A program made the translations under genes and the position numbers. This document shows, one piece after another, positions 11,737 to 64,000 of a stretch of 64,000 nucleotides of DNA. Each line of letters starts with the position of its first letter. Positions within the stretch are counted from its first letter, which is position 1. The notes under the pieces were generated by a model that was not told the origin of the DNA, did no database searches, and saw only the letters and a program-made list of their open reading frames with translations. The DNA comes from Candidatus Moraniibacteriota bacterium (GTDB lineage: Bacteria > Patescibacteriota > Minisyncoccia > Moranbacterales > UBA1568): positions 3,242 through 67,241 of the forward strand of contig CP064974.1 of NCBI GenBank assembly GCA_016699385.1. The letters run 5' to 3'.

Positions 11737-11773
11737 AAACGAAGATTTTGCGTCCCAATTATCTTTCCAACCT

Positions 11774-19459: not shown

Positions 19460-19548
19460 GTTTGTCCAGTTGTATTTCGAATAGTCATGGGAGCAGTTCA
19501 AATATTTTAGTTTTTCAGGGGTTTTCTTTTATTGTCTTAAATAGGTAA

Positions 19549-19824
<276 letters not shown>

Positions 19825-19845
19825 GGAATTGAGAGCAGGGGAACA

Positions 19846-20358: not shown

Positions 20359-20361
20359 TCT

Positions 20362-22268: not shown

Positions 22269-22271
22269 AGT

Positions 22272-24595
<2,324 letters not shown>

Positions 24596-36047: not shown

Positions 36048-36176
36048 CATATACGAAAAACAGTGCGAGATGTATGGTTTTTTTGATGCCTTTTCAACTG
36101 ACTCTTAAAAAAGTTTCAAATCTCAAATTTCTGAAATCGTTTTCTCATTTCAGGTCTGGATTTTGAATTTTTTCCT

Positions 36177-37232: not shown

Positions 37233-37279
37233 GCAGAGGTATAGAGTTTGTAATTCCCATTTTTTATTCCTGCTCTTCC

Positions 37280-37717
37280 ATGATTTCTCGAGGATTTACT
37301 GTTATTGAGCTTCTTCTTGTTGTGGCAATTTTCTTTGTGATCGCTGGATTTGCACCGGCTTTCTATAGTCGATTTTTGTCGCAGGATGCTGTTGCCGAGA
37401 CGGCCGATCGTCTTGCTGGCTCACTTCGAAATGCGCAGGGATATTCACTTGCAGGGAAGGGGAGTCTTCCGTGGGGGGTGGCTCTTAGTAATAGTTCCCT
37501 CGTGCTTTTTCAAGGTGCTTCATTTGCGACTCGGAATATATCGCTCGATCGGCGAGTTGCTATACCTTCGTCTGTTTCGGTAAGTGGCTTGAGTGAGACT
37601 GTCTTTGCTCGCGTTTCGGGAATACCGACAGCTCCTCTCACGGTTTCCCTCACTGCCTCGGGTGGCGCTTCACAAACGCTTGTCATGAATGCGCTTGGCG
37701 TTGTGAATCGGGAGTGA
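37280..37717 (+). CDS. type IV pilin / pseudopilin with a prepilin-type N-terminal cleavage-methylation motif
   Basis: MISRGFTVIELLLVVAIFFVIAG has G-F at the cleavage site and Glu at +5. Confidence 0.75.
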   Translation: MISRGFTVIELLLVVAIFFVIAGFAPAFYSRFLSQDAVAETADRLAGSLRNAQGYSLAGKGSLPWGVALSNSSLVLFQGASFATRNISLDRRVAIPSSVSVSGLSETVFARVSGIPTAPLTVSLTASGGASQTLVMNALGVVNRE

Positions 37718-38031
37718 GAGTCGTTTTTGCCAACGACTCTCACAAAGAAAATGCCCACCATACGCGTGGTTATTTTTTTGTAAAATCATTTTTTCTATCC
37801 CTACACCCCTCCCCCTTGCACCTGCCAGTTGAAACTCGCACACGCCGTATCCCGACACCCGCACTTACACCCGCCACCCTGCACAGAGCCCGTCATCCCC
37901 ACAAGGTAGGCAGGGTCTGTGGCGCTTGCGGTACGAGTATCAATATCTACAGTATACCACTTCTCTCTCATTTTTTTCACCGGTTGTTTTACGAGTCACT
38001 TCTCATATTTTCGTTCAAGAATTCGGGACCA

Positions 38032-38059
38032 TTGGATGCGAATTCGAGCATGGTATAAT
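38032..38059 (+). promoter_or_regulatory. sigma70-type promoter TTGGAT-16-TG-n-TATAAT, giving a leaderless transcript for the 3xLamG gene
   Basis: TTGGAT at 38032..38037 and extended -10 TGGTATAAT at 38051..38059. The ATG at 38066 is only 6 nt downstream of the -10 hexamer. Confidence 0.45.
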
Positions 38060-38065
38060 GCCCTC

Positions 38066-40228
38066 ATGCATCGGAAAACGAAACGCGCGTATTTGTTTCA
38101 ATGGATTATCATTTCCCTCTTCCTCCTCGCGGGGACAGGAGGATATTTTTGGTATCAGTCGAAGGCGGGCGTGACGGTCAGTTCGCCAGGGACCAGTGAC
38201 AATGCTCTCACGAGCGGGCTCGTGGCACACTGGACTTTCGATCAGAATCATATCGTGTGGAGCGATACGACGACGGAAATTAAGGACTCGACTGCCGGCG
38301 CACAACATGGCAATGCCGTTGGCTCTCTATCAGAGGCAAGTGTCGTCCCTGGCAAGCAGGGGCAGGCGCTCAAGTTTAATGGGACGAGCGATCAGATAGA
38401 GACTCCCTACAACACGACACTCACTTCCTACTCTTTTGCCTTTTGGTTCAAGACGGGGGACGTGCATGTGGATGATTATGATACGATTATCGCAAAGTTT
38501 TATTATGACCGTTGCGAAATACGAGGGTACGCCAATGAACTCCTCGCTTGTACAATTGATAATTCAAGTAATCTTGTGTACTCCCGCTCCTCCGTTATTG
38601 ATGATACATGGCATCACGGAGTCTTCACAGTAACAAATGGCAGTCAGAAGCTCTATGTAGATGGTATACTCAATGATTCACGGACTGATGCATTCACCTC
38701 AGCTCCTGATACAATATCCATTGGCGTTGACTATGACTTGTCGAGTGCATCTCGCTTCCCTGGCTCCATCGACGATGTCCGTGTCTACAACCGCGTCCTC
38801 TCCGCTTCCGAAGTCTACCAGCTCTACACGGCTGGCACCGCAACAGTAAATGCTCCTGTCGAAGACCCCCTCTCCCAATCCCTCCGCGGCTACTGGAAAC
38901 TCGATGACGGCTCCGGCACCAATGCGACCGACAGTAGTGGAAATGCAAACACCCTCGCCATGACTGGCTCTCCCGGTTGGGTGACCGGAAACATCGGTCC
39001 CTCTGCCCTCGACTTCTCCGGAAGCGGACAATACCTCTCCGTCGCCGATCCCGCAAGCGGTGTCCTCGACTTTGCCAATGGAGCCGACTTCTCCCTCACA
39101 GGCTGGTTCAATCGAGACACTTTCACCGCCGACCACACCATCGTCGCCAAGAAAACCGACCAAGCTACCAATGCCGGCTATGTCGTCTGGATAGATGCCT
39201 CTACCGATACGGTCAACTTCGAAATTTCTGATGGTACCTATACCTACGAAGCAGACTCTACCACAACATTCACATCAACCGGTTGGCATCACTTCACTGC
39301 CGTCTGGGATGATAGTCGTGGTGCCTCTGTCTATATCGACGGAGGACTCAATGGAAGCACAGAAACCTCTACCAGTAGTATAGGAGACCTCTCGAATGCC
39401 AATGCCTTCCGTATCGGAGCCGAATCCGACGCCGGAGTTCCTTTTGATGGCAAGCTCGATGATATCCGCGTCTATGGCTACGCTCTCTCTGCTGACGAAG
39501 TAAAGAAGCTCTACAATACCACGAGCCCCGCCCAACCCGTCGACACCTCCTTGGTTGGGCACTGGACGTTTGATGGTCCGGATATTCAGGGGAGTACCGC
39601 AATAGACAGGAGTAGCTTCGGGAACAATGGGACGATAACGGGAGCGGTACCGGTGAAGGGGAAATTGGGCCAGGGGATGAGTTTTGATGGGGATGGGGAT
39701 TATGTGTATGCCGGGTCGGGGTCGTCGCTTGCCAATTTGAGCGCTCTCACGATTTCATTTTGGATGAATTTGGATTCGTTTGGCCAGAATAGCCAGGGAA
39801 ATGTTATCAACAAAGGTTCCGATTGTTGCACGCCTTTGGAAGGATTTCTCGTGAGAGTGGACGGAATATATAATTTTGTCGTATTTGGTGTTGATTATGA
39901 TGGAGCGACAGATCTTGCAATGCAGTCCCTTGATAATTCTCTGACGAGTTCAGATTTCGGTATCTGGAATCATATCGCGGTGACATGGACCGGATCATCC
40001 GCAGCGACGAGCGTCGTCATATACAAGAACGGACAAAATGTCACTCAGTCATCCGGCGACAATGGCATCGGAAGTCGGAGAGACGATTCCGGATCGGGTT
40101 TCCATATTGGAGTTGATGCAGGATGGCCCATTGCGCGTGCTTTTGATGGGAAACTCGACGATGTCCGCCTCTACAATCGTGTCCTCTCGGCAACGGAAGT
40201 AATGAATCTCTATACTCTCGGGCGGTAG
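38066..40228 (+). CDS. membrane-anchored 3xLamG (concanavalin A-like lectin) surface protein (copy C, intact)
   Basis: The ORF track starts at 37919, but the TM anchor begins after Met-50 (MHRKTKRAYLFQWIIISLFLLAGTGGYFW) at 38066. Three LamG_3-type units each end with a DD(I/V)R(V/L)Y(N/G)xxLSA(D/S/T)E(V)...LY motif. Confidence 0.8.
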   Translation: MHRKTKRAYLFQWIIISLFLLAGTGGYFWYQSKAGVTVSSPGTSDNALTSGLVAHWTFDQNHIVWSDTTTEIKDSTAGAQHGNAVGSLSEASVVPGKQGQALKFNGTSDQIETPYNTTLTSYSFAFWFKTGDVHVDDYDTIIAKFYYDRCEIRGYANELLACTIDNSSNLVYSRSSVIDDTWHHGVFTVTNGSQKLYVDGILNDSRTDAFTSAPDTISIGVDYDLSSASRFPGSIDDVRVYNRVLSASEVYQLYTAGTATVNAPVEDPLSQSLRGYWKLDDGSGTNATDSSGNANTLAMTGSPGWVTGNIGPSALDFSGSGQYLSVADPASGVLDFANGADFSLTGWFNRDTFTADHTIVAKKTDQATNAGYVVWIDASTDTVNFEISDGTYTYEADSTTTFTSTGWHHFTAVWDDSRGASVYIDGGLNGSTETSTSSIGDLSNANAFRIGAESDAGVPFDGKLDDIRVYGYALSADEVKKLYNTTSPAQPVDTSLVGHWTFDGPDIQGSTAIDRSSFGNNGTITGAVPVKGKLGQGMSFDGDGDYVYAGSGSSLANLSALTISFWMNLDSFGQNSQGNVINKGSDCCTPLEGFLVRVDGIYNFVVFGVDYDGATDLAMQSLDNSLTSSDFGIWNHIAVTWTGSSAATSVVIYKNGQNVTQSSGDNGIGSRRDDSGSGFHIGVDAGWPIARAFDGKLDDVRLYNRVLSATEVMNLYTLGR

Positions 40229-40315
40229 GGCGATAGATGGAACGAGAAGCATAGATACCTCATTCAATCCATTCAAGCGTTCATTTGTAAAAAATAATTT
40301 TCTAGCCGTCATCCT

Positions 40316-43300
40316 ATGCTACCCCTCAAAATATCGGTCAAGAAGAGAATGCTCCGATCAGTCTTCTTTTCGGTCACTGCCCTTTTTTTGTTCATCGGTA
40401 TTTCTTCAAGCGCCGAAGCGGCAAACAAATATGTGCGCCAGGGTGCTTCTGGGAACGGGAGCGATTGGACGAACGCGTATGCGACATTGCCGAGCCGATC
40501 TGACCCGCGGCGATACCTACTATATCGCGGATGGGAGTTACGGCAGCTACACCTTCGACGACAACGCCAGCGGCACAACGCCGATCACGATTAAGAAATG
40601 CACTGCGAGCGATCATGGGACGGAGACTGGGTACGGCGCGGGGTATTGCGATGGGCAGGCGGTATTTGGTGGTCTGACTTTTAAGCGCCCCTACTATGTG
40701 TTTGATGGTGCAAAACGAAATGAAGACAATTGGCAAGAGACGCTAGCCTATGGCTTTAAGACGTCCGAAATTTACGCAAACACAGGTGATGGCGCAAATG
40801 CTCCGAACATAATAATACGCTATGTGGATATCGGCGGTCCGAACGGAGAAATATGTACCGGGAGTACGCCAGGAAGTGGTATATATGCCGTGTATGGAAG
40901 CATGCACAACTGGACCATTTCCCGAAGCCATATACATAACGTGGAAATCAGTATTCGGACTGTTAATGTAAATAATTGGACTATTGAACATACCCATCTT
41001 GGTCCGAGTTGGGCAAAAGAAAGCATTTCAAACAATGAAGCGAGCGGGTGGATTCTTCGACACAATAAATTCATCGACAATCTCATCTATCCTCCAACCG
41101 CTTGCCAACACGGTGGCGACGGCGCGACGGCAGATATGTGGACTCGTGTAACCAACGGATCGAATGATAATTGGTCAGTCTATGGAAATGTTTTCGGAGA
41201 TAGTGGCACGTACAACAACATCATGCGCACCAATGCGGTCGTATTGGGAAGTTATTGGAGCGGTCCGTCGGACGGTGTTAGTGGGTGGAAAGTGTACAAC
41301 AATGTGTTTTACAACATTCAAGGAGGACAAAATCTCGTCAAACTGGGGAACGGAAGCGGCAATGTCGTCGCGAATAATCTATGGTATAAATCGCGGGAAG
41401 CCGGTCAAAATATCGGTATCGTTACCAATGGAACAGCTTATACCTCATGGTGCAATTCTACACCCTATTCCCTCTGCCCCTCTTCGCCCGGGACGTGGCT
41501 GCAAGGAAGCGACAATCCTTTCGTCAATGTAACTGGTTTTAATTTTAATCTTAAATCTTCGATTTCTGGCGCATCTCCCATTAATGCTGGAACGGCGCTT
41601 GGCGAAGGCTTTGACTCAATTGACGGAAACGGAAATACCCGCGGTGCCGACGGCACCTGGGACATCGGCGCCTACGAGTACACCTCCGGCTCTAGTACCC
41701 CCGACACCACTTCCCCCACTTCTCCCACCGGCCTCGCCGCAAACGCCACGAGCCAATCGAGCATCACCGTCTCCTGGACCGCCTCGACCGATCCGATAGT
41801 CGCGGGACAGACCACCTCAGGTATTTCCAATTACATCGTCGAGCGCTGCCAAGGCTCCGGTTGTTCCACCTTCACCCAAGTCGGCACTCCGACCACCTCT
41901 CCCTTCGTCGACTCCGGCCTCACGCCAAACACCTTTTACAACTATCACGTCCGCGCGACCGATGCCGCCGGGAATCTCTCCGGCTGGTCCAATGTGGTCG
42001 GTGCCACCACGCAGTCGGGCGGAGTCAATTATTATATCCGTGACGGAGGCACATCCTCAACCTGTACCGACTGGACGAATGCCTGTGATTCGCTTCCGTC
42101 GACTCTGGTGCGCGGGGCAACCTACTATATCGCGGATGGGAGTTACGGCAGCTACACCTTCGACGACGACGCGAGCGGTACGACACCGATTACAATCAAG
42201 AAATGCATTGCGAGCGATCACGGGACGGGGACGGGATACAGTGCGGACTATTGCGACGGGCAGGCGGTATTTGGCGGTCTGTATTTCACTCGTCCTTATT
42301 ATGTCATCGACGGCGCCACGCGAAATGAAAGTAACTGGAAGGACGCCGGGGCTTATGGCATTAGAGCGACTGAAGTTCGGGCGTCTCGGCTCGATGGAGG
42401 ACATTCCCCATCAGGTGAATGCTCGGCGGATAATCTGTCGTTCAGCTATTTGCACGTCGGCAATACGGGGACTACTTATGCCACATACACCGGGTCGAGA
42501 TCTTTTTATCTAGGCGGGTTTGGGGGCGGTGCGCTAGCCTGCCAAAATTGGTCGATCTCTCGGGTACTTATTCAGAACACGCTGGAGTTGCAGTGCGCTG
42601 GCGGCGAAGGGCTTCTTGTTGAGAAAAGCTATTTTTACAAAGGTTGGTCCAAGGAAGCAATAAGGGGGCAAGTGCATTGCAAGGATGCGATTGTTCGATG
42701 GAATATTTTTGAGGATTCATGTCACAATCCGCAAGAGGGCTATGCTTGTACTGGTGAAATTGCTGCTTGGGATGGAAATGCCAACTCAATGGATGCGTGG
42801 CAAATCTATGGTAATGTCTTCTACAAGACAGGGCAAGACACTTATCTCAATACAGACGCTGTTGTGATGATTGGAGATACGGTTGGTCCTGGGCCGATTA
42901 CTAATAATTCCGTTGCATACGACAATACTATTGCAGGAATTAAGGTTGGTTATAATTCGAGCATCCACTTAAACGGTGGCACAGGCAATGTCTGTCGCAA
43001 TAATCTCTGGTATGATACCAAGACCAGTGGTTGTTCCGCGAATACTTCTAGCAATAATATCCTAGCTACTAGCAATCCGTTTGTTAATTATCCGGGTGGC
43101 GATTTGCGATTGTCCGGTACCACGGCGGCGGGTTATTCTCTGGGTTCACCCTACAACGCGGATTTATTGGGCAGCACCCGCGGTGCCGACGGCACCTGGG
43201 ACATCGGCGCCTACGAGTACACCTCCGGCTCTAGTACCCCCGACACCACGTCTCCCACTTCTCCCACCAACCTCGCCGCTACTGCTCCTTCATCCTCCAG

Positions 43301-44951
43301 CATCACCGTCTCCTGGACCGCCTCGACCGATCCGACAGTCGCAGGACAAACCACGTCAGGTATTTCCAATTACGTCGTCGAACGCTGCCAAGGAACAGGC
43401 TGTTCCACCTTCACCCAAGTCGGCACTCCGACCACCTCTCCCTTCGTCGACTCCGGCCTCACGCCAAACACCTTTTACAACTATCACGTCCGCGCGACCG
43501 ATGCCGCCGGGAATCTCTCCGGCTGGTCCAATGTGGTCGGTGCGACGACCCAAGCTCCTGATACGCAAGCGCCCACAGCTCCGAGCAATCTCCAAACCTC
43601 CGTCGTCTCATCCTCCAGCATCAACCTCGCCTGGACGGCAAGCACAGACAATGTCGCCGTCACCAATTACACCGTCGAACGCTGCTCCGGAACTTCCTGC
43701 ACCACCTTCACCCAAATCGCCACTCCAACGACCAACTCCTACTCCGACGCCGGTCTTACGGGAACGACGACCTACCGCTACCGAGTCCTCGCAACCGATG
43801 CCGCCAACAACACTTCCCCCTACTCGAATATTTCTTCCGCCACGACCCCCGAGACACCTCCCGTCTCCCAGTATCTCCAGGCGGGCTACAACTTTGCCGA
43901 AGGCACCGGCACCACCACCCAAGACATCTCCGGTCACAACCACACCGGTACTCTCTCCAATACCACCTGGTCGACGAGCGGCAAATACGGAAACGCTCTC
44001 GACTTTAACGGAACGAGCAGCTCTGTCGGTATTGGAAACTGGAACATTCCCGGAAGCGCCATCACCCTAAGCGCCTGGGTACGGGCGGACGACTGGAAGA
44101 CGGACGATGTCCGCATCCTCTCCAAAGCAACCGACAGTACCGAACAGGGTCATACCTGGATGCTCTCCGATTCCAATAGTCTCCTCCGCTTCCGCCTCAA
44201 AACCGGTGGCACAACCACAACCCTCGTTGCAACGAGCGGCACTCTCCAAACAAATGTCTGGACTCATGTCGCCGCGGTCTATGACGGAAGCACGATGACA
44301 CTCTACAAAGACGGACTCGAAGTCGGAAGCCAAGCCAAAACCGGCACCATCGATCAAAACACCGCCAACATTTCAATCGGAGCAAATCCCGAAGGCTCCA
44401 ACTCCTTTGACGGTACGATAGACGATGTCCGCATCTACAACAAGGCGCTCACGCAATCAGAAATCCAAACCGATATGAATACGGCGCTTACTTCGGGAGG
44501 AGGCGGTACGGTCGCCTGCAACACCGTGACGACCGCGAACTTCTCCGATGCCGCTTACAACAGTTACGGCGCGCCTTTCGATGCGTTTCAAACGAGTACG
44601 AATCTGATGAATGCACTGTGCACCAGCGCCGACACGCATACCATCACGCTCACGACCGGAGTAACGGGAGACACCGCGAGAATCGTCTACACCAAAGGCT
44701 ACTGGTACGATGCAATAGGAAGCGCCTGGCGACAATACACCGGCACCTGCACGGGAGCGCTCAATGGCGAGTGGTGCCAAGGCTCCGTCTCCGCGACGAT
44801 CACGGATGCCAATGTCTCCACTTCCGGGACGGGCTCACCCACCTACCTGGTCGGGATGACCTGCAGTGTGCAGGGAGGGAGTTGGAAGTGCGGGTGTCGG
44901 GATACGGCGTGTGCGAGTTTCAACTGGCAGGTGCAAGGGGGAGGGATGTAG
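40316..44951 (+). CDS. large secreted surface protein (copy C, long form; one frameshift near 40495): signal peptide, 2 beta-helix domains, 3 FN3 domains, LamG_3 domain, Cys-rich C-terminal domain
   Basis: The ORFs 40316..40594 and 40431..44951 overlap. The N-terminus is identical to the 14055 gene up to a one-base insertion (gagccgatc versus gagcgatc). The likely start is the ATG at 40349. The domain architecture was read from motifs as for copy B, plus a second beta-helix (GGVNYYIRDGGTSSTCTDWTNAC...). Confidence 0.75.
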
Positions 44952-48640: not shown

Positions 48641-48903
48641 CGGCTTGAACGAAGGGTGGATCTCAAATGAAAAATGACGAATCTTGTGAGAGTGCTTGCA
48701 GGAGAGTGAGTTTCAAATGCCGAGATATTTGAGGATTGAGAAGGTGTCTTGAATTTTTATGTGAAATTTGGAAGTGCAGCTTTGTATTTTGTTGAATAAT
48801 CGGGCATATTGATGTACTTGACAGAGTTCGAAAGAGCTTTGTTTTTTTGTGGATTTTGTAGTACTATTATGACTAGACACATGGGTGTATTTTCTTAATT
48901 TCG

Positions 48904-51900
48904 ATGCTCTCGACTGAAGTGACGAGGAGGATACGCTTTCATCCTCTCGGATTACTTCGATCCCGAATGCATTTCTTCAATCAAAACAAAAAAGTGAGTC
49001 TGCTCACAATGCTTCGCAATGTGATACAGACAGAAAAGCATTTCATCGCACTTCTTTCGGTAGGTATACTGGCAGGGGTTTGTATCTGGGGAGTAGCTTC
49101 TCCGGCTGTTTTTGCGCAGGCGATTCCGGGAACAACGCCAACACTTGGGAATGAAAAGCAAGTGAGTGCTTCGGCAATATTGCTTGACGGCAAAGGGTCG
49201 CCAGTGCCGAATGGCGAATATGAAGTCCGGTTTAGCATTTATCGCGCCGATCGTGCGACGAGCGATCCCTACCCGTCGGACACGGATGCTACGCTTCGCG
49301 TGTGGGAGGAAACACAGCAAGTGACCGTGAAGAACGGCATCATGAATGCCTACCTCGGTGTGACGACGCCATTTCCGGGGACGCTCACCTTTGAGGGTGG
49401 GGAGTATTTCCTCGGGGTCCGCGTTGGGACGGATTCGGAAATGGTGCCACGGAAAAAGTTTGGCACATTTACGAATGCGATTAATTCACAATTTTTGCGA
49501 GGGAAAACGATTGGCACGAATGCCGGTGATATCGTGACCTATGGCACGAGCGGGAAGATAGATATAAAGCAGCTCCCGACTGGGACGAGCGGAAGTAAAT
49601 TACTCCTCGCAAACAACAAAGATTTTACGGGCGTACTAAACGATGTATCCGGGCTTCTTGGGGATGTCTCCGGACTTCTCGGCGATGTCTCAAATCTTCA
49701 GGGTGACAGTCACGCGCAAAACACGGATACCGGTACGGATTCACTCACGTTTAATATTGGGTCTGGAACAGCTGTAGGGTCGAACAATTTCGACCTGACG
49801 GTCTCGAACGCGACCAATGCGCCCACACTTCGCTATAGCGGGTCGGCAGGGGAATGGCAGTTCTCGGATGATGGTACGACCTTTGCATCGCTCGGAGCAG
49901 GATCGGGCAGTGGCATAACCGGAACAGGAACGAATGGCTTTGTTTCCTACTGGACGGGAGCAAGTACGCTTGGGTCGGAAGCATACCTAGCGACATCTCG
50001 TGGTGGGACCGGACTCGACACCTCGAGCTCGACGGGTATTCCGGTGATTGCTTCTGGTACGTGGAGCGTTGCCTCTTCGCTTGGCGTTTCACAGGGAGGT
50101 ACCGGACTCACGTCTACCCCTTTGAATGGACAGCTCCTCATCGGAAATGGAAGTGATTTCTCTTTGGCAACATTGTCCGTTGGGAATGGTCTCTCGGTGA
50201 CGAATGGATCGGGGTCGGTGTCACTTGCGCTCGATGTGACGACGACGGGCACGACATCGACGACACAGTCGAATTCCGGACTCGAGCTCGTTGCATCTGG
50301 ACTCCGGTTGCTTGGTGGTTGTTCGGATGGGGAAATACTCAAGTGGGATAGTGGGAGTTCAGTATGGACATGCTCCAGCGATCTCGGTGCTACAACATCA
50401 ATTATCAACGTGAATGAAGGAGCAACAGCGTATACAGGTATTGATACGCTCACATTTGATGCCAATGACTTCAGTATCACTCAGCTCGGGAGTGAAGCAA
50501 CGGTGGCAATCGATTATGCGAATTCCGGAATCGCTCGCCTTGGTCAGGATGAGACCGTGACCGGCGCCTGGACATTTAGCGGTAACGCAACTTTTGGTAC
50601 GATTGCAGGTGGTGTCTGGAATGGCACCGCGATTGGCGCCACCTATGGCGGTACCGGTATCAATACGAGTGGCTCGACCGGCGTGCCCTATATCACAGGT
50701 GGTACGTGGAGTGTCGATACAACGGCACTGGCGGTCTCGCATGGCGGTACGGGTGCGACGAGTTTGAATAATCTCATCACTCTTGGGACGCATACTACGG
50801 GCAACTACGTCGCTGCCATCACTGCCGGAGATGGTATCTCTGGATCTGCCGGAAGCGAAGGCGCTACTCCAACCCTCTCCGTCAACCTCCTCACCTCTGC
50901 CGATGGCACCGGAAGCACTTCCTCCAACTCCGGCCTCGAATTCCAAGGCACGAGCTCCAATGAACTCTCCCTCATCCAAGGCTGTGCTGACAATGAAGTC
51001 CTCTCTTGGAATGATGGAACGAGTGTCTGGCAGTGCGCCTCTGTCTCTGGTGTTGGCGGCGTGACGGGAAGTGCAACGAGTGGGCAAGTCGCCTATTGGT
51101 CTGGCACCTCTACCATTTCCGGAGAAAACCAACTCGCGGTCTCAAGAGGAGGAACAAATATCGGTTCGTATGCCATTGGTGATATTCTCTACGCAAGCGG
51201 TGCTACCACACTTGCCAAACTTGCTGACATTGCTACGGGAAATGTCCTCCTTTCCGGTGGGGTAGGCGTGGCACCGAGCTGGGGGAAGGTGGCGCTTGGG
51301 ACGCATACCACGGGAAACTATGTCGCCAATGCGAGCACCTCGACACTCACGGGTCTCACGGGCGGATCAGGCGGATCAGCGGGCGCATCACTCTCTCTCG
51401 CACTCGACTATTCTACGGCGCTTGCGGGTGACCCGGCGCTTTCGGCGAACAATGCTATTTTCGGAACAAATGGACTTATCTTCGAAGGAGCGACAGCAGA
51501 TACTTTCGAGACATTCATCACTCTTGCTGATCCAAGTGCTGATCGAACATTTACCTTCCCGGATCTTTCGGGGACGATAGCGACGATCAATGGGGCACAG
51601 ACATTTACCAATGCCATTTGGAATGCGACAGCTATTGGCGCAACTTATGGTGGGACAGGTATCAATACTGCGAGCTCAACAGGCGTACCATATATTTCCT
51701 CCGGCACGTGGAGTGTCGACGCAACTTCGCTTGCGGTGGCACATGGAGGAACGGGTGTTGCAACTTTCGGCGGGACCAACACGCTCCTCTATACAACTTC
51801 TGCCAATACACTCGCGTCTCTGGCAACAGCGAATAGCTCCATACTTGTCACCAATGGTTCGGGTGTCCCTTCACTCGCAACAGATATCCCGACCGCCGTC

Positions 51901-54900
51901 ACTATCGGTGGCGCCTATGTCTATCGAGTGGGCGGGACAGATGTATCACTTGCCGATGGCGGCACCGGCGCCTCTCTCTCTGACCCCAATGCCGACAACA
52001 TCCTCTTCTGGGACGACTCTGCCGGAGCAAGCACTTGGCTCGCCCTCTCCTCCAACCTCTCCATCACTGCCACCACCCTCGACCTCGCCTCCTCCGTCAA
52101 CATCAACACCCTCCAACTCGGCGCAAACGGCACCGACGGTTCTTTCATTCTTTACTCCGAACAGGGCGCGACCGACTACACCACGACTTTCCAGCCCGGC
52201 ACCCAAACACAAAACATCACCTATACACTTCCAAACGATGATGGGACAAGTGGGCAGGTACTTCTCACCGATGGAAGTGGCACACTTTCTTGGTCGAGCG
52301 TCTCCGGTGCTGGCGGAGTGAGTGGAACTGGAACAAGCGGCTACGCAACATATTGGGATAGCACGAACTCTATTGCTGCCGAACAATATCTCTCCCTTAC
52401 CCGAGGAGGCACCGGTACCACACTCTCCAATCCCGGAGCCGATCGCGTTCTCTTCTGGGATAACTCTGGTGGTGCACTGACCTGGCTCGCTCCTTCTTCC
52501 AACCTCTCCATCACTGCCACCACCCTCGACCTCGCCTCCTCCGTCAACATCAACACCCTCCAACTCGGCGCAAACGGTACCGACGGTTCTTTCATTCTTT
52601 ACTCCGAACAGGGCGCGACCGACTACACTACGACTTTCCAGCCCGGCACCCAAACACAAGACATCACCTATACACTTCCGAATGATGATGGGACAAGTGG
52701 GCAGGTACTTCTCACCGATGGAAGTGGCACACTTTCTTGGTCGAGCGTCTCCGGTGCTGGCGGAGTGAGTGGAACTGGAACAAGCGGCTACGCAACATAT
52801 TGGGATAGCACGAACTCTATTGCTGCCGAACAATATCTCTCCCTTACCCGAGGAGGCACCGGTACCACACTCTCCAATCCCGGAGCCGATCGCATTCTCT
52901 TCTGGGATAACTCTGGTGGTGCACTGACCTGGCTCGCTCCTTCTTCCAACCTCTCCATCACTGCCACCACCCTCGACCTCGCCTCCTCCGTCAACATCAA
53001 CACCCTCCAACTCGGCGCAAACGGTACCGACGGCTCTTTCATTCTCTACTCCGAACAGGGCGCGACCGACTACACTACGACTTTCCAGCCCGGCACCCAA
53101 ACACAAGACATCACCTATACACTTCCAAACGATGACGGGACAAGTGGGCAGGTCTTAATTACCGATGGATCAGGAGTACTTTCTTGGACTTCAGCCGGAT
53201 CGGGAGGTATCGGAGATATCACCGCTATCGGAGATGTGACGAGCGGAGATGCTTTCACCTCAAGCGGCATCCAAGGAACCAGCTTGTATTTCTACGATGT
53301 TGATGGGAGGGGTCAACTGACCAGCGCTGATCTTTCCGCTGTTCGCACCTATACCTTGCCAGACGCAACGGGTACTATTATTACAACGGGCAATCTCACT
53401 GGCATCACAGCGACCGGCACTATAGCAAGCGGTACCTGGAACGGCACCGCAATTGGCGCCACCTATGGCGGTACCGGACTCAATACTTCTGCCTCCACTG
53501 GTGTCCCTACTATTAATAGTGGTACTTGGAGTGTGGCGAGTTCGCTTGGAGTGGCGCTTGGAGGGACTGGAACAACGGCACTCGCAAGTGGGGGCATTCT
53601 CTATGGGAATGGCACGAGTGCGATTGGTGTCTTGGGAGTGATGACAAATGGACAATTGCTCATTGGTGATGGCACCGGTGCGCCAACACTTGCGGCGCTT
53701 TCCGAAGGGAACGGTGTCACAGTGACAAACGGCGCCGGATCTATTAGCCTCTCCGTCAACCTCCTCACCTCTGCCGATGGCACCGGAAGCACTTCCTCCA
53801 ACTCCGGCCTCGAATTCCAAGGCACGAGCTCCAATGAACTCTCCCTCATCCAAGGCTGTGCTGACAATGAAGTCCTCTCTTGGAATGATGGAACGAGTGT
53901 CTGGCAGTGCGCCTCTGTCTCTGGTGTTGGCGGCGTGACGGGAAGTGCAACGAGTGGGCAAGTCGCCTATTGGTCTGGCACCTCTACCATTTCCGGAGAA
54001 AACCAACTCGCGGTCTCAAGAGGAGGAACAAATATCGGTTCGTATGCCATTGGTGATATTCTCTACGCAAGCGGTGCTACCACACTTGCCAAACTTGCTG
54101 ACATTGCTACGGGAAATGTCCTCCTTTCCGGTGGGGTAGGCGTGGCACCGAGCTGGGGGAAGGTGGCGCTTGGGACGAGTGTCTCTGGAACGCTGCCGGT
54201 TGCAAATGGAGGAACGGGAGCAACGAGTCTCAATGATCTTATCGCACTTACGACGAACACGACGGGGAATTATGTAGCGAGTATCAGTAATGGAAATGGC
54301 ATTTCTGGAGGGGATGGTGGTGGGGAAGGCTCTTCTCTCACACTCGCGTTGAGCGCGCTTACGGGTGATTGGAATCAGACAGGTGCCTATGACATCGTAC
54401 TCAACAATGCTTCATCGGAACTCAAGATTCTCGAATCAAGTGGCGCGACATTCTTCGGTATATTCGATGTTGGCGACCTGTCAAGTAATGACAAGACCTA
54501 CACTTTTCCAAATGCGACCGGCACAGTAGCGCTTGGTACGGGAGCGGCGAATGCAGTTGCCTATTGGAGTGGAGCAAACACTCTGACATCGGAAGCGCAA
54601 TTGTCCAATACGCGCGGTGGCACGGGGCAAGATAGTTCAGGATGGACTGGTGTGCCGTATGTGACCGCTGGTGCGTGGAATGTTTCGAGTACGCTCTCCC
54701 TGGCACTTGGCGGCACCGGTACCACACTCTCCAATCCCGGAGCCGATCGCGTTCTCTTCTGGGATAACTCTGGTGGTGCACTGACCTGGCTCGCTCCTTC
54801 TTCCAACCTCTCCATCACTGCCACCACCCTCGACCTCGCCTCCTCCGTCAACATCAACACCCTCCAACTCGGCGCAAACGGCACCGACGGTTCTTTCATT

Positions 54901-57900
54901 CTTTACTCCGAACAGGGCGCGACCGACTACACCACGACTTTCCAGCCCGGCACCCAAACACAAAACATCACCTATACACTTCCAAACGATGATGGGACAA
55001 GTGGGCAGGTACTTCTCACCGATGGAAGTGGCACACTTTCTTGGTCGAGCGTCTCCGGTGCTGGCGGAGTGAGTGGAACTGGAACAAGCGGCTACGCAAC
55101 ATATTGGGATAGCACGAACTCTATTGCTGCCGAACAATATCTCTCCCTTACCCGAGGAGGCACCGGTACCACACTCTCCAATCCCGGAGCCGATCGCGTT
55201 CTCTTCTGGGATAACTCTGGTGGTGCACTGACCTGGCTCGCTCCTTCTTCCAACCTCTCCATCACTGCCACCACCCCTCGACCTCGCCTCCTCCGTCAAC
55301 ATCAACACCCTCCAACTCGGCGCAAACGGCACCGACGGTTCTTTCATTCTTTACTCCGAACAGGGCGCGACCGACTACACCACGACTTTCCAGCCCGGCA
55401 CCCAAACACAAGACATCACCTATACACTTCCGAATGATGATGGGACAAGTGGGCAGGTCTTAATTACCGATGGATCAGGAGTACTTTCTTGGACTTCAGC
55501 CGGATCGGGAGGTATCGGAGATATCACCGCTATCGGAGATGTGACGAGCGGAGATGCCTTCACCTCAAGCGGCATCCAAGGAACCAGCTTGTATTTCTAC
55601 GATGTTGATGGGAGGGGTCAACTGACCAGCGCTGATCTTTCCGCTGTCCGCACCTGGACTTTGCCAAATGAAACCGGCACCATCTGTACCACCGGCAGTG
55701 TCTGTTCTGGCTACCAAGCCTCTCTCGGCTACACGGCTGCCAACGCCGCTCTCTCCAACCTCGCCTCCGTCGCCATCAATACGAGCCTCGTCTCCGACAC
55801 CGACAATACCGATGACCTTGGTTCCGCTGCGATTGCTTGGAAGGATGTATATACCCGCACTATCAAATTTGATGGAAGCACTTCTGGTACCATCACCCTC
55901 AATGCAACCGCTATCGCCGGTACCAATACCATTACGCTCCCAGCGAGTACGGGAACCGTCGCCCTCACCAGTGACCTTCATAACGCTGTCACCCTTTCCG
56001 GATCCTATGACTACATCACCCTTTCCGGTCAAGACATTGTTCGCGGACAAGTTGACCTCACAACCGATGTGACGGGGACACTGCCAGTAGGGAATGGAGG
56101 AACGGGCGCGACCACTCTCAACAATCTCATCACCCTCGGGACGCACACCACCGGAAACTACGTCGCCTCCGCAACCGCAAGCGGTGGTCTCGCTCTGACC
56201 GGCACCGAAGGCGGGAGTCTCGGCATTCTCCTCCAACCTTCAACGGATGCGCTTTCAAGTACCACGAGCTCCGGCTCTGGTATGGAACTCCTCGCAACCG
56301 GACTCACCCTCCTTCAAGGATGTACCAGTGGGGAAGTACTTGCTTGGAACGAAGCAACCGATGTCTGGGAATGTGCGAGCGTCAGTGGTATTGGTGGTGC
56401 CAACGCCGCTCTCTCCAACCTCGCCTCCGTCGCCATCAATACGAGCCTCGTCTCCGACACCGACAATACCGATGACCTTGGTTCCGCTGCGATTGCTTGG
56501 AAGGATGTATATACCCGCACTATCAAATTTGATGGAAGCACTTCTGGTACCATCACCCTCAATGCAACCGCTATCGCCGGTACCAATACCATTACGCTCC
56601 CAGCGAGTACGGGAACCGTCGCGCTCACCAGTGACCTTCATAACGCTGTCACCCTTTCCGGATCCTATGACTACATCACCCTTTCCGGTCAAGACATTGT
56701 TCGCGGACAAGTTGACCTCACAACCGATGTGACGGGGACACTGCCAGTAGGGAATGGAGGAACGGGCGCGACCACTCTCAACAATCTCATCACCCTCGGG
56801 ACGCACACCACCGGAAACTACGTCGCCTCCGCAACCGCAAGCGGTGGTCTCGCTCTGACCGGCACCGAAGGCGGGAGTCTCGGCATTCTCCTCCAACCTT
56901 CAACGGATGCGCTTTCAAGTACCACGAGCTCCGGCTCTGGTATGGAACTCCTCGCAACCGGACTCACCCTCCTTCAAGGATGTACCAGTGGGGAAGTACT
57001 TGCTTGGAACGAAGCAACCGATGTCTGGGAATGTGCGAGCGTCAGTGGTATTGGTGGTGCCAACGCCGCTCTCTCCAACCTCGCCTCCGTCGCCATCAAT
57101 ACGAGCCTCGTCTCCGACACCGACAATACCGATGACCTTGGTTCCGCTGCGATTGCTTGGAAGGATGTATATACCCGCACTATCAAATTTGATGGAAGCA
57201 CTTCTGGTACCATCACCCTCAATGCAACCGCTATCGCCGGTACCAATACCATTACGCTCCCAGCGAGTACGGGAACCGTCGCCCTCACCAGTGACCTTCA
57301 TAACGCTGTCACCCTTTCCGGATCCTATGACTACATCACCCTTTCCGGTCAAGACATTGTTCGCGGACAAGTTGACCTCACAACCGATGTGACGGGGACA
57401 CTGCCAGTAGGGAATGGAGGAACGGGCGCGACCACTCTCAACAATCTCATCACCCTCGGGACGCACACCACCGGAAACTACGTCGCCTCCGCAACCGCAA
57501 GCGGTGGTCTCGCTCTGACCGGCACCGAAGGCGGGAGTCTCGGCATTCTTCTCCAGCCTTCAACGGATGCGCTTTCAAGTACCACGAGCTCCGGCTCTGG
57601 TATGGAACTCCTCGCAACCGGACTCACCCTCCTTCAAGGATGTACCAGTGGGGAAGTACTTGCTTGGAACGAAGCAACCGATGTCTGGGAATGTGCGAGC
57701 GTCAGTGGTATTGGTGGTGCCAACGCCGCTCTCTCCAACCTCGCCTCCGTCGCCATCAATACGAGCCTCGTCTCCGACACCGACAATACCGATGACCTCG
57801 GTTCCGCTGCGATTGCTTGGAAGGATGTATATACCCGCACTATCAAATTTGATGGAAGCACTTCTGGTACCATCACCCTCAATGCAACCGCTATCGCCGG

Positions 57901-60900
57901 TACCAATACCATTACGCTCCCAGCGAGTACGGGAACCGTCGCCCTCACCAGTGACCTTCATAACGCTGTCACCCTTTCCGGATCCTATGACTACATCACC
58001 CTTTCCGGTCAAGACATTGTTCGCGGACAAGTTGACCTCACAACCGATGTGACGGGGACACTGCCAGTAGGGAATGGAGGAACGGGCGCGACCACTCTCA
58101 ACAATCTCATCACCCTCGGGACGCACACCACCGGAAACTACGTCGCCTCCGCAACCGCAAGCGGTGGTCTCGCTCTGACCGGCACCGAAGGCGGGAGTCT
58201 CGGCATTCTTCTCCAGCCTTCAACGGATGCGCTTTCAAGTACCACGAGCTCCGGCTCTGGTATGGAACTCCTCGCAACCGGACTCACCCTCCTTCAAGGA
58301 TGTACCAGTGGGGAAGTACTTGCTTGGAACGAAGCAACCGATGTCTGGGAATGTGCGAGCGTCAGTGGTATTGGTGGTGCCAACGCCGCTCTCTCCAACC
58401 TCGCCTCCGTCGCCATCAATACGAGCCTCGTCTCCGACACCGACAATACCGATGACCTCGGTTCCGCTGCGATTGCTTGGAAGGATGTATATACCCGCAC
58501 TATCAAATTTGATGGAAGCACTTCTGGTACCATCACCCTCAATGCAACCGCTATCGCCGGTACCAATACCATTACGCTCCCAGCGAGTACGGGAACCGTC
58601 GCCCTCACCAGTGACCTTCATAACGCTGTCACCCTTTCCGGATCCTATGACTACATCACCCTTTCCGGTCAAGACATTGTTCGCGGACAAGTTGACCTCA
58701 CAACCGATGTGACGGGGACACTGCCAGTAGGGAATGGAGGAACGGGCGCGACCACTCTCAACAATCTCATCACCCTCGGGACGCACACCACCGGAAACTA
58801 CGTCGCCTCCGCAACCGCAAGCGGTGGTCTCGCTCTGACCGGCACCGAAGGCGGGAGTCTCGGCATTCTTCTCCAGCCTTCAACGGATGCGCTTTCAAGT
58901 ACCACGAGCTCCGGCTCTGGTATGGAACTCCTCGCAACCGGACTCACCCTCCTTCAAGGATGTACCAGTGGGGAAGTACTTGCTTGGAACGAAGCAACCG
59001 ATGTCTGGGAATGTGCGAGCGTCAGTGGTATTGGTGGTGCCAACGCCGCTCTCTCCAACCTCGCCTCCGTCGCCATCAATACGAGCCTCGTCTCCGACAC
59101 CGACAATACCGATGACCTCGGTTCCGCTGCGATTGCTTGGAAGGATGTATATACCCGCACTATCAAATTTGATGGAAGCACTTCTGGTACCATCACCCTC
59201 AATGCAACCGCTATCGCCGGTACCAATACCATTACGCTCCCAGCGAGTACGGGAACCGTCGCCCTCACCAGTGACCTTCATAACGCTGTCACCCTTTCCG
59301 GATCCTATGACTACATCACCCTTTCCGGTCAAGACATTGTTCGCGGACAAGTTGACCTCACAACCGATGTGACGGGGACACTGCCAGTAGGGAATGGAGG
59401 AACGGGCGCGACCACTCTCAACAATCTCATCACCCTCGGGACGCACACCACCGGAAACTACGTCGCCTCCGCAACCGCAAGCGGTGGTCTCGCTCTGACC
59501 GGCACCGAAGGCGGGAGTCTCGGCATTCTTCTCCAGCCTTCAACGGATGCGCTTTCAAGTACCACGAGCTCCGGCTCTGGTATGGAACTCCTCGCAACCG
59601 GACTCACCCTCCTTCAAGGATGTACCAGTGGGGAAGTACTTGCTTGGAACGAAGCAACCGATGTCTGGGAATGTGCGAGCGTCAGTGGTATTGGTGGTGC
59701 CAACGCCGCTCTCTCCAACCTCGCCTCCGTCGCCATCAATACGAGCCTCGTCTCCGACACCGACAATACCGATGACCTCGGTTCCGCTGCGATTGCTTGG
59801 AAGGATGTATATACCCGCACTATCAAATTTGATGGAAGCACTTCTGGTACCATCACCCTCAATGCAACCGCTATCGCCGGTACCAATACCATTACGCTCC
59901 CAGCGAGTACGGGAACCGTCGCCCTCACCAGTGACCTTCATAACGCTGTCACCCTTTCCGGATCCTATGACTACATCACCCTTTCCGGTCAAGACATTGT
60001 TCGCGGACAAGTTGACCTCACAACCGATGTGACGGGGACACTGCCAGTAGGGAATGGAGGAACGGGCGCGACCACTCTCAACAATCTCATCACCCTCGGG
60101 ACGCACACCACCGGAAACTACGTCGCCTCCGCAACCGCAAGCGGTGGTCTCGCTCTGACCGGCACCGAAGGCGGGAGTCTCGGCATTCTTCTCCAGCCTT
60201 CAACGGATGCGCTTTCAAGTACCACGAGCTCCGGCTCTGGTATGGAACTCCTCGCAACCGGACTCACCCTCCTTCAAGGATGTACCAGTGGGGAAGTACT
60301 TGCTTGGAACGAAGCAACCGATGTCTGGGAATGTGCGAGCGTCAGTGGTATTGGTGGTGCCAACGCCGCTCTCTCCAACCTCGCCTCCGTCGCCATCAAT
60401 ACGAGCCTCGTCTCCGACACCGACAATACCGATGACCTCGGTTCCGCTGCGATTGCTTGGAAGGATGTATATACCCGCACTATCAAATTTGATGGAAGCA
60501 CTTCTGGTACCATCACCCTCAATGCAACCGCTATCGCCGGTACCAATACCATTACGCTCCCAGCGAGTACGGGAACCGTCGCCCTCACCAGTGACCTTCA
60601 TAACGCTGTCACCCTTTCCGGATCCTATGACTACATCACCCTTTCCGGTCAAGACATTGTTCGCGGACAAGTTGACCTCACAACCGATGTGACGGGGACA
60701 CTGCCAGTAGGGAATGGAGGAACGGGCGCGACCACTCTCAACAATCTCATCACCCTCGGGACGCACACCACCGGAAACTACGTCGCCTCCGCAACCGCAA
60801 GCGGTGGTCTCGCTCTGACCGGCACCGAAGGCGGGAGTCTCGGCATTCTTCTCCAGCCTTCAACGGATGCGCTTTCAAGTACCACGAGCTCCGGCTCTGG

Positions 60901-63900
60901 TATGGAACTCCTCGCAACCGGACTCACCCTCCTTCAAGGATGTACCAGTGGGGAAGTACTTGCTTGGAACGAAGCAACCGATGTCTGGGAATGTGCGAGC
61001 GTCAGTGGTATTGGTGGTGCCAACGCCGCTCTCTCCAACCTCGCCTCCGTCGCCATCAATACGAGCCTCGTCTCCGACACCGACAATACCGATGACCTCG
61101 GTTCCGCTGCGATTGCTTGGAAGGATGTATATACCCGCACTATCAAATTTGATGGAAGCACTTCTGGTACCATCACCCTCAATGCAACCGCTATCGCCGG
61201 TACCAATACCATTACGCTCCCAGCGAGTACGGGAACCGTCGCCCTCACCAGTGACCTTCATAACGCTGTCACCCTTTCCGGATCCTATGACTACATCACC
61301 CTTTCCGGTCAAGACATTGTTCGCGGACAAGTTGACCTCACAACCGATGTGACGGGGACACTGCCAGTAGGGAATGGAGGAACGGGGGTGGCGACTTTCG
61401 GCGGGACCAATACGCTCCTCTATACTACTTCTGCCAATACACTCGCTTCTCTGGCAACGGCGAATAGCTCCATACTTGTCACCAATGGTTCAGGTGTCCC
61501 TTCACTCGCAACAGATATCCCGACCGCCGTCACTATCGGTGGCGCCTATGTCTATCGAGTGGGTGGGACAGATGTATCCGTCGCCGATGGGGGAACAGGT
61601 TTGAGTTCATATACCGCTGGCGACATTCTCTATGCCTCTGGAACAACGACACTTGCGGGACTGAGTGATGTCGCTACTGGAAATGTTCTCCTTTCTGGCG
61701 GGATAGGCTCCTCACCGAGTTGGGGCAAGGTGGCACTTGGGACACATACGACCGGAGACTATATCGCCTCAGCAACCGCGAGTGGCGGACTCGTAATGAC
61801 GGGAACGGCTGGCGGGAGTCTCGGCATTCTTCTCCAGCCTTCAACGGATGCGCTTTCAAGTACCACGAGCTCCGGCTCTGGTATGGAACTCCTCGCAACC
61901 GGACTCACCCTCCTTCAAGGATGTACCAGTGGGGAAGTACTTGCTTGGAACGAAGCAACCGATGTCTGGGAATGTGCGAGCGTCAGTGGTATTGGTGGTG
62001 CCAACGCCGCTCTCTCCAACCTCGCCTCCGTCGCCATCAATACGAGCCTCGTCTCCGACACCGACAATACCGATGACCTCGGTTCCGCTGCGATTGCTTG
62101 GAAGGATGTATATACCCGCACTATCAAATTTGATGGAAGCACTTCTGGTACCATCACCCTCAATGCAACCGCTATCGCCGGTACCAATACCATTACGCTC
62201 CCAGCGAGTACGGGAACCGTTGCCCTTATTGATGGAGGACAGACGTTTACCTCTGCTACTTGGAATGGCACTGCAATTGGCTCCATCTATGGAGGCACTG
62301 GACTCAATACCTCTGCCTCTACTGGTGTTCCTACTATTAGTAGTGGTACCTGGAGTGTGGCGAGTTCGCTTGGAGTGGCACTTGGAGGAACGGGCACGAC
62401 CACTCAATTCACCCAAGGCTCTATCGTTTTTGCCGGTGCAAGCGGTGTGTATACACAAGACAATGCCAATTTCTTCTGGGATAATACGAATAAGAGATTG
62501 GGGATTGGGGACGCTACTCCCGACAGTGCTCTTGATATTTTGGCAGCCGATGCATCAAATACCTATCTCACTATCGGCAACACCAATGCCGGAAGTTACA
62601 ATGCAGGTATTCGCTTTGAGCTCACCGAGAACAGCGCTCTCTATTCTCTCGGTGTTGATGATACGGATTCTGATAAATTCAAAATATATGCTGGTTCAGA
62701 CTTCAGTGGCACAAGTCAATTTTCCATAGATACGACTGGTGTTACCACCATCAGTCAGCTTCAGGTTGGCGCACAGAAATTTGAAACCGATGGCGGAGTG
62801 CTCTCCTGGGTGGATATGGATGTGACGAGTAGCGCGACGGACAACACGGTGGAGAGTTATAGCGCGCAGGTTGATGGGCAGAATCTCCTGACGATCTATG
62901 CCCTCTCTGATGGGGCGGGGAGTATTGACAACAAGAAGGTACAAATTGGTTTGGGAACCGATACGACACTTCCAGTATTGTTTGGTCTTGATGTAAGGAA
63001 CACCACCAGTGATCCGAGCGAAGGCTTCGAAGGCGCCATGTACTACAATACCTTCGACAACAAATTCCGCTGTTACCAAAACACTGGTTGGACTGACTGT
63101 ATTGGTGCAGGCTCTTCCTACACCGCCGGAAACGGTCTCACTCTTTCTTCTACAACATTCAAGCTCGGTGGCACTCTTTCTGAAAACACGACCATTGCTC
63201 AGACGACCTATACTTACAATCAGACATTCACCGGGACGACTACAACCGGTCTCACTTATACCGCCAATTCACTTACTACAGGCACAGCACTCAATGTTTC
63301 TTCTACTTCAACGGTTGGAGATGGCTCCAAGCTCTTGAATCTCAGCCGTTCGGGTGCTAATAGCACGAGTGGCAAAACGAACTATGGACTCTATTCTGCT
63401 ATTACGAATACAGGGACAACATCGACAAATATCGCCGGATATTTCAGTGCAACTGGAGCGACAACAAACTTTGGTTTGCAAGTAGCTGCGCTTACGGGGG
63501 CAACATCGACGGGCGTTGATATTGGCAATCTTTCTGGATCTACGGCGAACAAGGGAATAAATATCGGAACGATTTCTGGTACCGGTACTGGCGCTGGAGT
63601 GACCGTCGGAAATATCTCAAGTACTGGTGCAAATAATTACGGCATTAACCTCGGAACATTGACCGGAGGAACGGCATCAAATTCGCAGATTACCGCTGGT
63701 GTCGTAACGGCAGTAGCGAGCGCAACGAACTATGGCATCAATCTCGGCGGTATAACGGGTACAGCCGCATCCTCTACGAACTACGGTGTATTTGTCGGGA
63801 CGATGAGTGCAACAGGGACAGCGACATACGGCGCAAAGATTACGGGTCCGACCGGAGCGGCGACATCCAATTACGGTGTCAATATAACGGATGTCTCAGG

Positions 63901-64000
63901 AGCGACGCATAATGCCAACTTGGTACTCGGTACCGTCGCGACGACGGCAGGGAGCTGGTCACTGTATTCATCGAGTACGAATCAATCGTATTTTGCGGGC
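48904..64000 (+). CDS. giant secreted repeat protein (over 5000 aa, continues beyond the window) with tail-fibre-like Gly/Thr/Ser-rich repeats; one frameshift at a C-run near 55274
   Basis: A signal peptide follows internal Met (…MLRNVIQTEKHFIALLSVGILAGVCIWGVASPAVFAQA). The ORF is continuous from 48904 to 55437. A one-base difference from the sister repeat (ccacccctcg versus ccaccctcg) changes the frame at about 55274. The shifted frame is then open to position 64000 with no stop. Only out-of-frame P/S-rich ORFs appear in the track for 55.6-62.7 kb. Confidence 0.75.
51960..55602 (+). repeat. 447-bp (149-aa) repeats inside the giant gene: three tandem copies at about 51960..53301 and two more at about 54708..55602
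   Basis: ctccaacctctccatcactgccaccaccctcgacctcgcc recurs at 52052, 52499, 52946, 54800 and 55247. A separate roughly 440-bp block (50860..51300) is repeated at 53740..54180 (offset 2874 bp). Confidence 0.85.
55737..62222 (+). repeat. 660-bp (220-aa) near-perfect tandem repeat array, about 8.5 contiguous copies, plus one further partial copy after a 420-bp divergent spacer
   Basis: The anchor string gccaacgccgctctctccaacctcgcctccgtcgccatc recurs at 55740, 56400, 57060, 57720, 58380, 59040, 59700, 60360, 61020 and 62001. Units differ by only 1-3 SNPs (gaccttgg/gacctcgg, ctcctccaacctt/cttctccagcctt). The encoded unit is ...ANAALSNLASVAINTSLVSDTDNTDDLGSAAIAWKDVYTRTIKFDGSTSGTITLNATAIAGTNTITLPASTGTVALTSDLHNAVTLSGSYDYITLSGQDIVRGQVDLTTDVTGTLPVGNGGTGATTLNNLITLGTHTTGNYVASATASGGLALTGTEGGSLGILLQPSTDALSSTTSSGSGMELLATGLTLLQGCTSGEVLAWNEATDVWECASVSGIGG. 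Confidence 0.9.

Follow-up and report, generated by a model that had tools for sequence, protein, structure and literature searches.

The mosaic adhesive trimer (MAT) fibres of Bdellovibrio bacteriovorus, described by Caulton et al. in 2024, are proteins of about 1,000 amino acids (aa) in which a signal peptide is followed by a conserved beta-rich N-domain of ~130 aa without a homologue in the Protein Data Bank (PDB), a trimeric beta-prism shaft and a tip of the S74 or another type (PMC10769870). Exported proteins of more than 30,000 aa are encoded by giant genes of Omnitrophota, which are small-celled and probably host-dependent bacteria (bioRxiv 10.1101/2023.11.21.568195). Here we analyze a giant gene from a Candidatus Moraniibacteriota bacterium that recalls both of these systems as well as phage tail fibres. 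It lies on the plus strand of a 64,000-nucleotide stretch of contig CP064974.1, referred to as the window, extends from position 48967 to beyond the window end at 64000 and is split into two reading frames by one additional C in a C-run at 55274. That this is a single gene for a giant exported surface fibre, and the extra C a consensus error of a long-read assembly, is in our judgement likely.

In both the MAT fibres and the protein described here, a conserved N-domain of about 100–130 aa, rich in beta structure, comes immediately after the signal peptide; the long shaft is modular, all-beta and similar in sequence to tail fibres, and the variable C-terminus comes with or without S74, which here is present in an ortholog and missing from the closest C-terminal relatives. 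Both originate from small bacteria that need to attach to other cells, and neither N-domain has a structural homologue in the PDB; the giant fibre is likened to MAT by its architecture. In contrast to MAT, the giant protein is 5–6 times longer (at least 5,032 aa), contains near-identical tandem modules and belongs to a monoderm-like candidate-phyla-radiation (CPR) bacterium rather than to a Gram-negative predator. With phage fibres and tailspikes that carry Peptidase_S74, such as the K1F endosialidase and T5 pb1, it is connected through the C-terminus of its ortholog (PF13884), and with gp28 of cyanophage P-SCSP1u (8i4m) through the motif of its 149-aa module, which aligns in both. Unlike phage fibre genes, however, it sits on the chromosome among housekeeping genes for ParB, leucyl-tRNA synthetase (LeuRS) and ATP synthase with no phage genes nearby, and its product has a Sec signal peptide, which is absent from virion proteins, and is far longer than any phage fibre. 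The Omnitrophota giants share very long, repeat-rich genes, which owing to these repeats come out in pieces when short reads are assembled, but are an order of magnitude larger, and no dockerin, thrombospondin or peptidoglycan-hydrolase domains are present here.

Frame 1 of the plus strand is free of stop codons from 48877 to 55434, its longest open reading frame (ORF) starting at an ATG at 48904 and comprising 2,177 codons, while frame 2 is stop-free from 55232 to 64000 (2,923 codons) and runs off the window end. The two open stretches share ~200 nt inside a repeated 447-bp unit, and removal of one C joins them to a single ORF of at least 5,032 codons that is still open at 64000. As this meeting point lies inside a repeat unit that is read through in four other copies, we treat the 5' part in frame 1 (48967–55276) and the 3' part in frame 2 (55278–64000), which stays open up to the window's final base and has neither a start nor a signal peptide of its own, as one gene. 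A preliminary description of this DNA, made from the sequence and a list of its ORFs, had proposed a gene of more than 15 kb for an exported repeat protein that is cut by the window end and needs a single frame change at 55274, and the two joined open frames bear it out on both points. Its remark that the ORF track misleads over 55.6–62.7 kb was correct as well, since ORFs running off the end are left out of the listing and thus only out-of-frame 161-aa ORFs and minus-strand ORFs are shown there.

The real start is probably the ATG at 48967 (MHFFNQNKK...) and not the one at 48904, because the gene call on an independent contig (L001) begins at the equivalent position and the homologs begin with M..YVKNKN. 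At the other end, a stop codon was not recovered, the GTDB species representatives holding only relatives of at most 72% identity to most of the C-terminal query, and no database record was found for the exact 2,177-aa product of the frame 1 ORF. As the closest C-terminal relatives (L005 and L007) extend about 0.9–1.1 thousand residues past the point where the window ends, the full-length protein probably comprises ~6,000 aa, a figure that carries the same uncertainty as the copy number of an array of identical 660-bp modules, which is hard to establish.

What kind of protein the gene encodes does not emerge from common domain models, as Pfam and NCBIfam scans of four protein segments gave nothing above noise and a phmmer search of three segments against the PDB sequences gave no match. 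The modules containing GGTG motifs are matched, though, by the phage family phrog_31660, annotated as tail fiber protein (E=4.3e-10), and a profile built from the 149-aa module (A3) matches the solved fibre protein gp28 of cyanophage P-SCSP1u (8i4m_e residues 688–767, E=1.2e-6). Peptidase_S74 is an intramolecular trimerisation chaperone of endosialidases and tail fibres, and it was detected at the C-terminus of the syntenic ortholog L082 from genome CP064989 (PF13884, E=9.5e-12; also phrog_1980 and phrog_33119); L005 and L007 showed no Pfam match, S74 included. The resemblance to phage tail fibres suggested beforehand is thus borne out by phrog_31660, 8i4m and the Peptidase_S74 of the ortholog, and sequence comparison supports the assignment of the gene as coding for a tail-fibre-like surface fibre.

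Homologs of all parts of the protein are found mainly in Candidatus Moraniibacteriota and other Patescibacteria. Representative relatives of the 149-aa module alone number 4,243 (E<=1e-3); many lie within uninterrupted giants, one of which (P0169, 4,562 aa) contains 13 of these modules. Relatives in Moraniibacteriota and other Patescibacteria reach about 4,000–5,400 aa in uninterrupted ORFs, with individual values from 4,166 aa to the maximum of 5,377 aa. The family is large, uncharacterised, centred on the Patescibacteria and without a Pfam model.

The reading frame changes inside the second of two arrays of 447-bp (149-aa) modules, which were located on the plus strand by repeat finding and self-BLAST as three tandem copies at 51953–53293 and two at 54694–55588, the copies being mutually 94–96% identical. 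Four of these five copies read GCCACCACCCTCGACC, with C-runs of three at 52076, 52523, 52970 and 54827, while the fifth, the second copy of the second array, reads GCCACCACCCCTCGACC and has CCCC at 55274–55277. Behind this site, frame 1 continues on the plus strand as an Arg/His/Pro-rich tail (55278–55437; PRPRLLRQHQH...TSE, stop codon at 55435–55437), which differs in composition from the remaining protein and has no equivalent in any homolog. Frame 2 past the C-run gives LDLASSVNINTLQLGANG..., a sequence that the sister copies share without change and that the ortholog conserves. A comparison with related giant proteins, which the preliminary description had recommended, yielded many single uninterrupted ORFs, and L007 aligns across 55274 in one frame with ~50% identity. 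We regard the extra C as a probable single-base homopolymer error of a long-read assembly, the organism itself most likely having CCC and one ORF.

That the window must stem from a long-read assembly follows from its repeats, as 3.3 kb of identical 660-bp copies and 447-bp copies with 94–96% identity defeat short reads. Among the short-read data of the same or a near-identical strain, contig L001 ends at 50994, inside a 430-bp segment (50874–51303, plus strand) for which self-BLAST finds a 100% identical duplicate at 53748–54177, and the NCBI protein P0022 collapses modules. No same-strain contig spans 55274, the ENA/Logan contigs stopping at or before 50994, and a scan of metagenomes of the Joint Genome Institute (JGI) for the C3 or C4 allele gave no match. 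The flanks of the lesion are identical to copy 4 over 118 nt to the left and 134 nt to the right (a 253-nt stretch), and to copy 2 over 475 nt to the left. An erroneous C could survive here because the site is identical to neighbouring copies, so that short-read polishing cannot place its reads.

Errors of the same kind are apparent elsewhere in the window. Aligned to the intact paralogous segment at 41634–43266, positions 8630–10259 show 98% identity with 14 mismatches and 19 single-base gaps, and 26 gaps separate 7241–9008 from 13893–15664. The gaps in 7.2–10.3 kb are mostly of one base, gained or lost in runs of 2–5 bases, with insertions about as frequent as deletions, and are best taken as read errors because decay in the course of evolution would produce substitutions in far greater number than indels. 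At least three breaks interrupt the RecQ gene at 3809–5611, one of them an in-frame stop at 5102–5104. As the differences from intact paralogs are mostly single-base homopolymer indels, the evidence points to a poorly polished or low-coverage long-read stretch over the left 14 kb rather than to real pseudogenes. Positions 1–14200 as a whole form a patchwork of short open frames, in which arginyl-tRNA synthetase (ArgRS) is present only as a C-terminal remnant (3045–3669) and LamG/fn3 paralogs are fragmented. Searches for exact matches to two ORFs from this error-rich part or its vicinity gave no result.

Lesions of this kind also disrupt the orthologs in two further long-read assemblies, at positions other than the one here, which adds to the case for an artefact. 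The CP064989 ortholog contains a G5 run shortened to G4 near L082:9850 and an additional T in a CT run at L082:11686, both of which look like uncorrected long-read errors, and internal repeat copies of the JBBCGM010000002 ortholog differ by 8 gaps with 0 mismatches. In the annotation of CP064989, the fibre ortholog appears as three hypothetical proteins of 1,980, 555 and 2,086 aa, split by those two lesions. The consensus error, which had been named as one of two options for the frame change, is hence the best-supported explanation when the lesion type, the non-unique site and the like errors in the window are taken together.

Several observations weigh against it. The region of 44.9–64 kb is otherwise clean, with 0 indels and six transition SNPs (single-nucleotide polymorphisms) over 6 kb relative to L001 and likewise 0 indels between repeat copies covering 5 kb, so a lone leftover error there would not be a matter of course. 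A run of three or four C is a short homopolymer and less error-prone than longer runs, and the number of C at 55274–55277 is read from the consensus sequence alone. Finally, the inserted base in CP064989 also falls into the last 447-bp copy, ~26 nt from the equivalent site, and could mark a real mutational hot spot.

If the extra C were genuine, it would represent a recent frameshift, fixed or polymorphic, and thus a young pseudogene or null allele, whose truncated product of 2,177 aa would lack the distal shaft and the tip and would probably fail in fibre folding and function. Natural populations often lose or vary large surface-protein genes, the surrounding 19 kb are free of other indels, which speaks for a generally good consensus in this part, and the lesion in CP064989 is only 26 nt away from the equivalent site. 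Yet the downstream frame has stayed intact over 2,923 codons, so that the inactivation would have to be very recent, and both the lesion type and the locally non-unique site match a polishing failure, many of which are demonstrable in the same assembly. We therefore consider a genuine mutation unlikely, although it deserves to be kept in mind. A further-reaching version, in which the frameshift is real and recurrent because a +1 insertion occurred within ~26 nt in the pyrimidine-rich stretch of the last 447-bp copy in two Moraniibacteriota species (55274; L082:11686), is improbable in our estimation. If true, it would define a hot spot of mutation, or a site of recoding, by which a fibre of ~6,000 aa for host attachment is turned off or shortened, and together with changes in the 660-bp copy number it could allow tiny episymbionts to vary their largest surface structure.

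We give even less credence to a phase-variable switch, the other option raised for this site, in which slipped-strand mispairing would toggle between C3 and C4 and turn the fibre on and off. Contingency loci are typically hosted by large surface-protein genes, and a homopolymer length change in such a gene is what we see here, but the homopolymer tracts of known switches are roughly 7 bases long or longer. The tract in question has only three or four, all four sister copies have C3, the ortholog carries ACAACCACTCTTGA at this site without any C-run, and the 5' coding region contains no long homopolymer. With a tract this short, no C-run in the ortholog and other long-read orthologs broken at other positions, the proposal of a switch did not hold up.

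Programmed +1 ribosomal frameshifting or another form of recoding at the C-run is very improbable indeed. Two related genomes do need a +1 change within ~26 nt in the last 447-bp copy; however, the two sites differ in sequence and position, and the relatives use one frame. In the context ACC-ACC-CCU-CGA a +1 slip would have no way to re-pair, no stop or rare codon adjoins the site, the frame-1 stop is 54 codons downstream, and CP064989 has its second break, from G5 to G4, elsewhere in the gene. Two separate adjacent genes, i.e. a 2,177-aa protein followed by an independent downstream giant, are scarcely conceivable, for although tandems of two or three giant fibre genes are common in relatives, each of those genes has its own start, whereas the junction here falls within a repeat unit that runs on unbroken in its four sister copies and a search for an independent start in frame 2 found the first ATG at 56282, only weak GTG or TTG codons before it and no signal peptide.

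Returning to the single fibre gene, its product begins with a Sec-type signal peptide or signal anchor, read from the translation of 48967–49119 (plus strand), with a basic n-region, a hydrophobic core of 18 residues (FIALLSVGILAGVCIWGV, 49042–49095) and a c-region leading to AVFAQ|A. The same layout including a conserved FAQ is common to more than 20 homologs (alignment A1), so that the signal peptide expected at the gene start is supported by translation and homologs alike. Directly behind it, positions 49156–49458 (plus strand) encode the conserved beta-rich N-domain (NGxYxVRFxIY...WEETQxVxVxNG...LG...YYLGIRIGTDSEMVPRKK in alignment A1). An AlphaFold2 model of the N-terminal 280 aa reached a predicted local distance difference test (pLDDT) value of 70 overall and ~90 for residues 20–120, i.e. 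the ~100 residues of the N-domain, and a Foldseek search of this model against the PDB returned only generic beta-sandwich noise with a best E-value of 0.04. The program hhalign relates the N-domain to the N-terminus of the otherwise unrelated 4,562-aa fibre P0169 with 97.8% probability (E=9e-13), and on account of this sequence homology a signal peptide, this N-domain and tail-fibre-like modules together define a broad superfamily. Shortly after the N-domain, Tandem Repeats Finder located an in-frame 21-bp repeat, (DVSGLLG)n, with ~2.4–2.8 copies at 49641–49699 (plus strand). A homolog with 86% identity (P0145) has one unit less, making this a small length-variable region between strains or species.

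The rest of the giant protein is modular and rich in Gly, Thr and Ser, with 31 GGT(G/N) motifs and 12 Cys-x16-Cys motifs, the latter suggesting disulfide hairpins and with them an extracellular location. The 149-aa module has an invariant core of xTYTLPxxDGxxGQVLxTDGxGxLSW in profile A3. A second, larger module of 660 bp (220 aa) forms a tandem array of 8.6 copies at 55738–61399 (plus strand; self-BLAST and copy comparison), in which copies 4–8 are 100% identical and copies 1–3 differ by 1–4 SNPs, with 0 indels throughout. The five identical copies occupy 57718–61017 (3.3 kb), and their true number is hard to fix even with long reads. Self-BLAST additionally found a diverged partial copy of ~95% identity at 61736–62226 (plus strand). 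With five 149-aa and 8.6 220-aa modules located, the mosaic of such repeats that had been described at the outset was recovered.

Towards the C-terminus, a conserved non-repeat domain is encoded at ~62402–63214 on the plus strand (QDNANFFWDNTN...DSDKFKIY...GAMYYNTFDNKFRCY). No other stretch is as well conserved across 132 related loci and 396 proteins, and the equivalent of this domain in L082 is found just upstream of Peptidase_S74. It is followed by degenerate short repeats of the xNYG(I/V)N(L/I)G type, for which AlphaFold2 predicts short regular beta strands with pLDDT values of 55–66. The initial account had assigned 18-residue repeats of this type to the entire C-terminal 1.7 kb; the repeats exist, but only at ~63380–63890 (plus strand) and with an irregular spacing of 15–31 residues, the remainder being the conserved domain. 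Their classification as beta-roll-like could not be upheld, given the irregular period, the low confidence of the AlphaFold model and the lack of an RTX nonapeptide or Pfam match. An RTX-type beta-roll was rejected as there are no GGxGxDxUx nonapeptides (Pfam HemolysinCabind), no Pfam match at E<=1 and no Asp-rich motif. For the model of the C-terminal 593 aa (pLDDT 55.6), Foldseek gave no significant match in the PDB. Phage tail fibres (T4 gp34, T5 and Mu) topped its list with E>=0.37 and were not used as evidence.

The remaining window consists of chromosomal CPR DNA encoding LeuRS, an ATP synthase operon, a histidine kinase, PilB and PilC, two intact LamG/fn3 proteins, ParB and a sugar nucleotidyltransferase, and no tRNA genes were found in it. 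The closed Moraniibacteriota genome CP064989 (1.09 Mb) is syntenic, with ParB, an NTP-transferase on the opposite strand, a gene for 253 aa and the giant gene, whose product is 80% identical over the N-terminal 770 residues. In locus L082 (CP064989.1, 740237–761904) the giant gene is followed by a gene for 157 aa and then the ATP synthase operon, unlike in the window, where this operon (18653–24595) lies 25–30 kb upstream of the giant gene. Either the two species differ by a rearrangement, or one assembly contains a misjoin. A PilB-like ATPase (34335–36047) and a PilC-like platform protein (36177–37232) are encoded directly upstream of the two LamG/fn3 surface proteins of 769 and 1,506 aa, and the entire pilus and LamG/fn3 region (34335–44951), a few kb from the giant gene, has the look of a gene cluster for the cell surface and attachment. 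Apart from these, the LeuRS of 987 aa (27114–30077) contains an unusual insertion just past its editing domain, where residues 433–527 match NUDIX (PF00293, E=1.4e-8, above the gathering score). An ATG-initiated ORF of 485 aa on the minus strand (20778–22235), antisense to the ATP synthase alpha gene (20766–22268, plus strand), is most likely a functionless shadow ORF.

From these features we propose how the fibre may work. The giant protein would be exported via Sec, its N-domain would remain at the cell surface, and the shaft of tail-fibre-like modules would trimerise, nucleated from the C-terminus as in S74-type fibres, while the distal tip would bind a host or partner cell. By analogy to phage tail fibres and the MAT fibres of Bdellovibrio, trimerisation and a projecting binding tip are probable. 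Two points count against this scheme, namely that trimeric state, surface location and binding function are all deduced from sequence, and that the monomer AlphaFold2 models of the N-domain (medium confidence) and of the C-terminal part (low confidence) gave no significant fold match in the PDB. The length of the shaft may also be variable. All repeat periods are multiples of 3 nt, and because of this and the identity of five 660-bp units, unequal recombination among the latter could change the shaft length in frame. Variation is more plausibly sought in such recombination than in the C-run.

The frameshift itself is probably without biological meaning. As this case illustrates, genes of this kind are routinely mis-annotated: long-read genomes show them as two or three hypothetical proteins, and short-read metagenome-assembled genomes as fragments that have collapsed. 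If intact, this one gene of ~18 kb would account for nearly 2% of a genome of ~1 Mb, judging by the related closed genome of 1.09 Mb, and its tail-fibre-like product could match the length of the cell. With type IV pilus genes and genes for large LamG/fn3 adhesins close by, the fibre is a strong candidate for the apparatus by which a CPR episymbiont attaches to its host, in a family with thousands of representatives.

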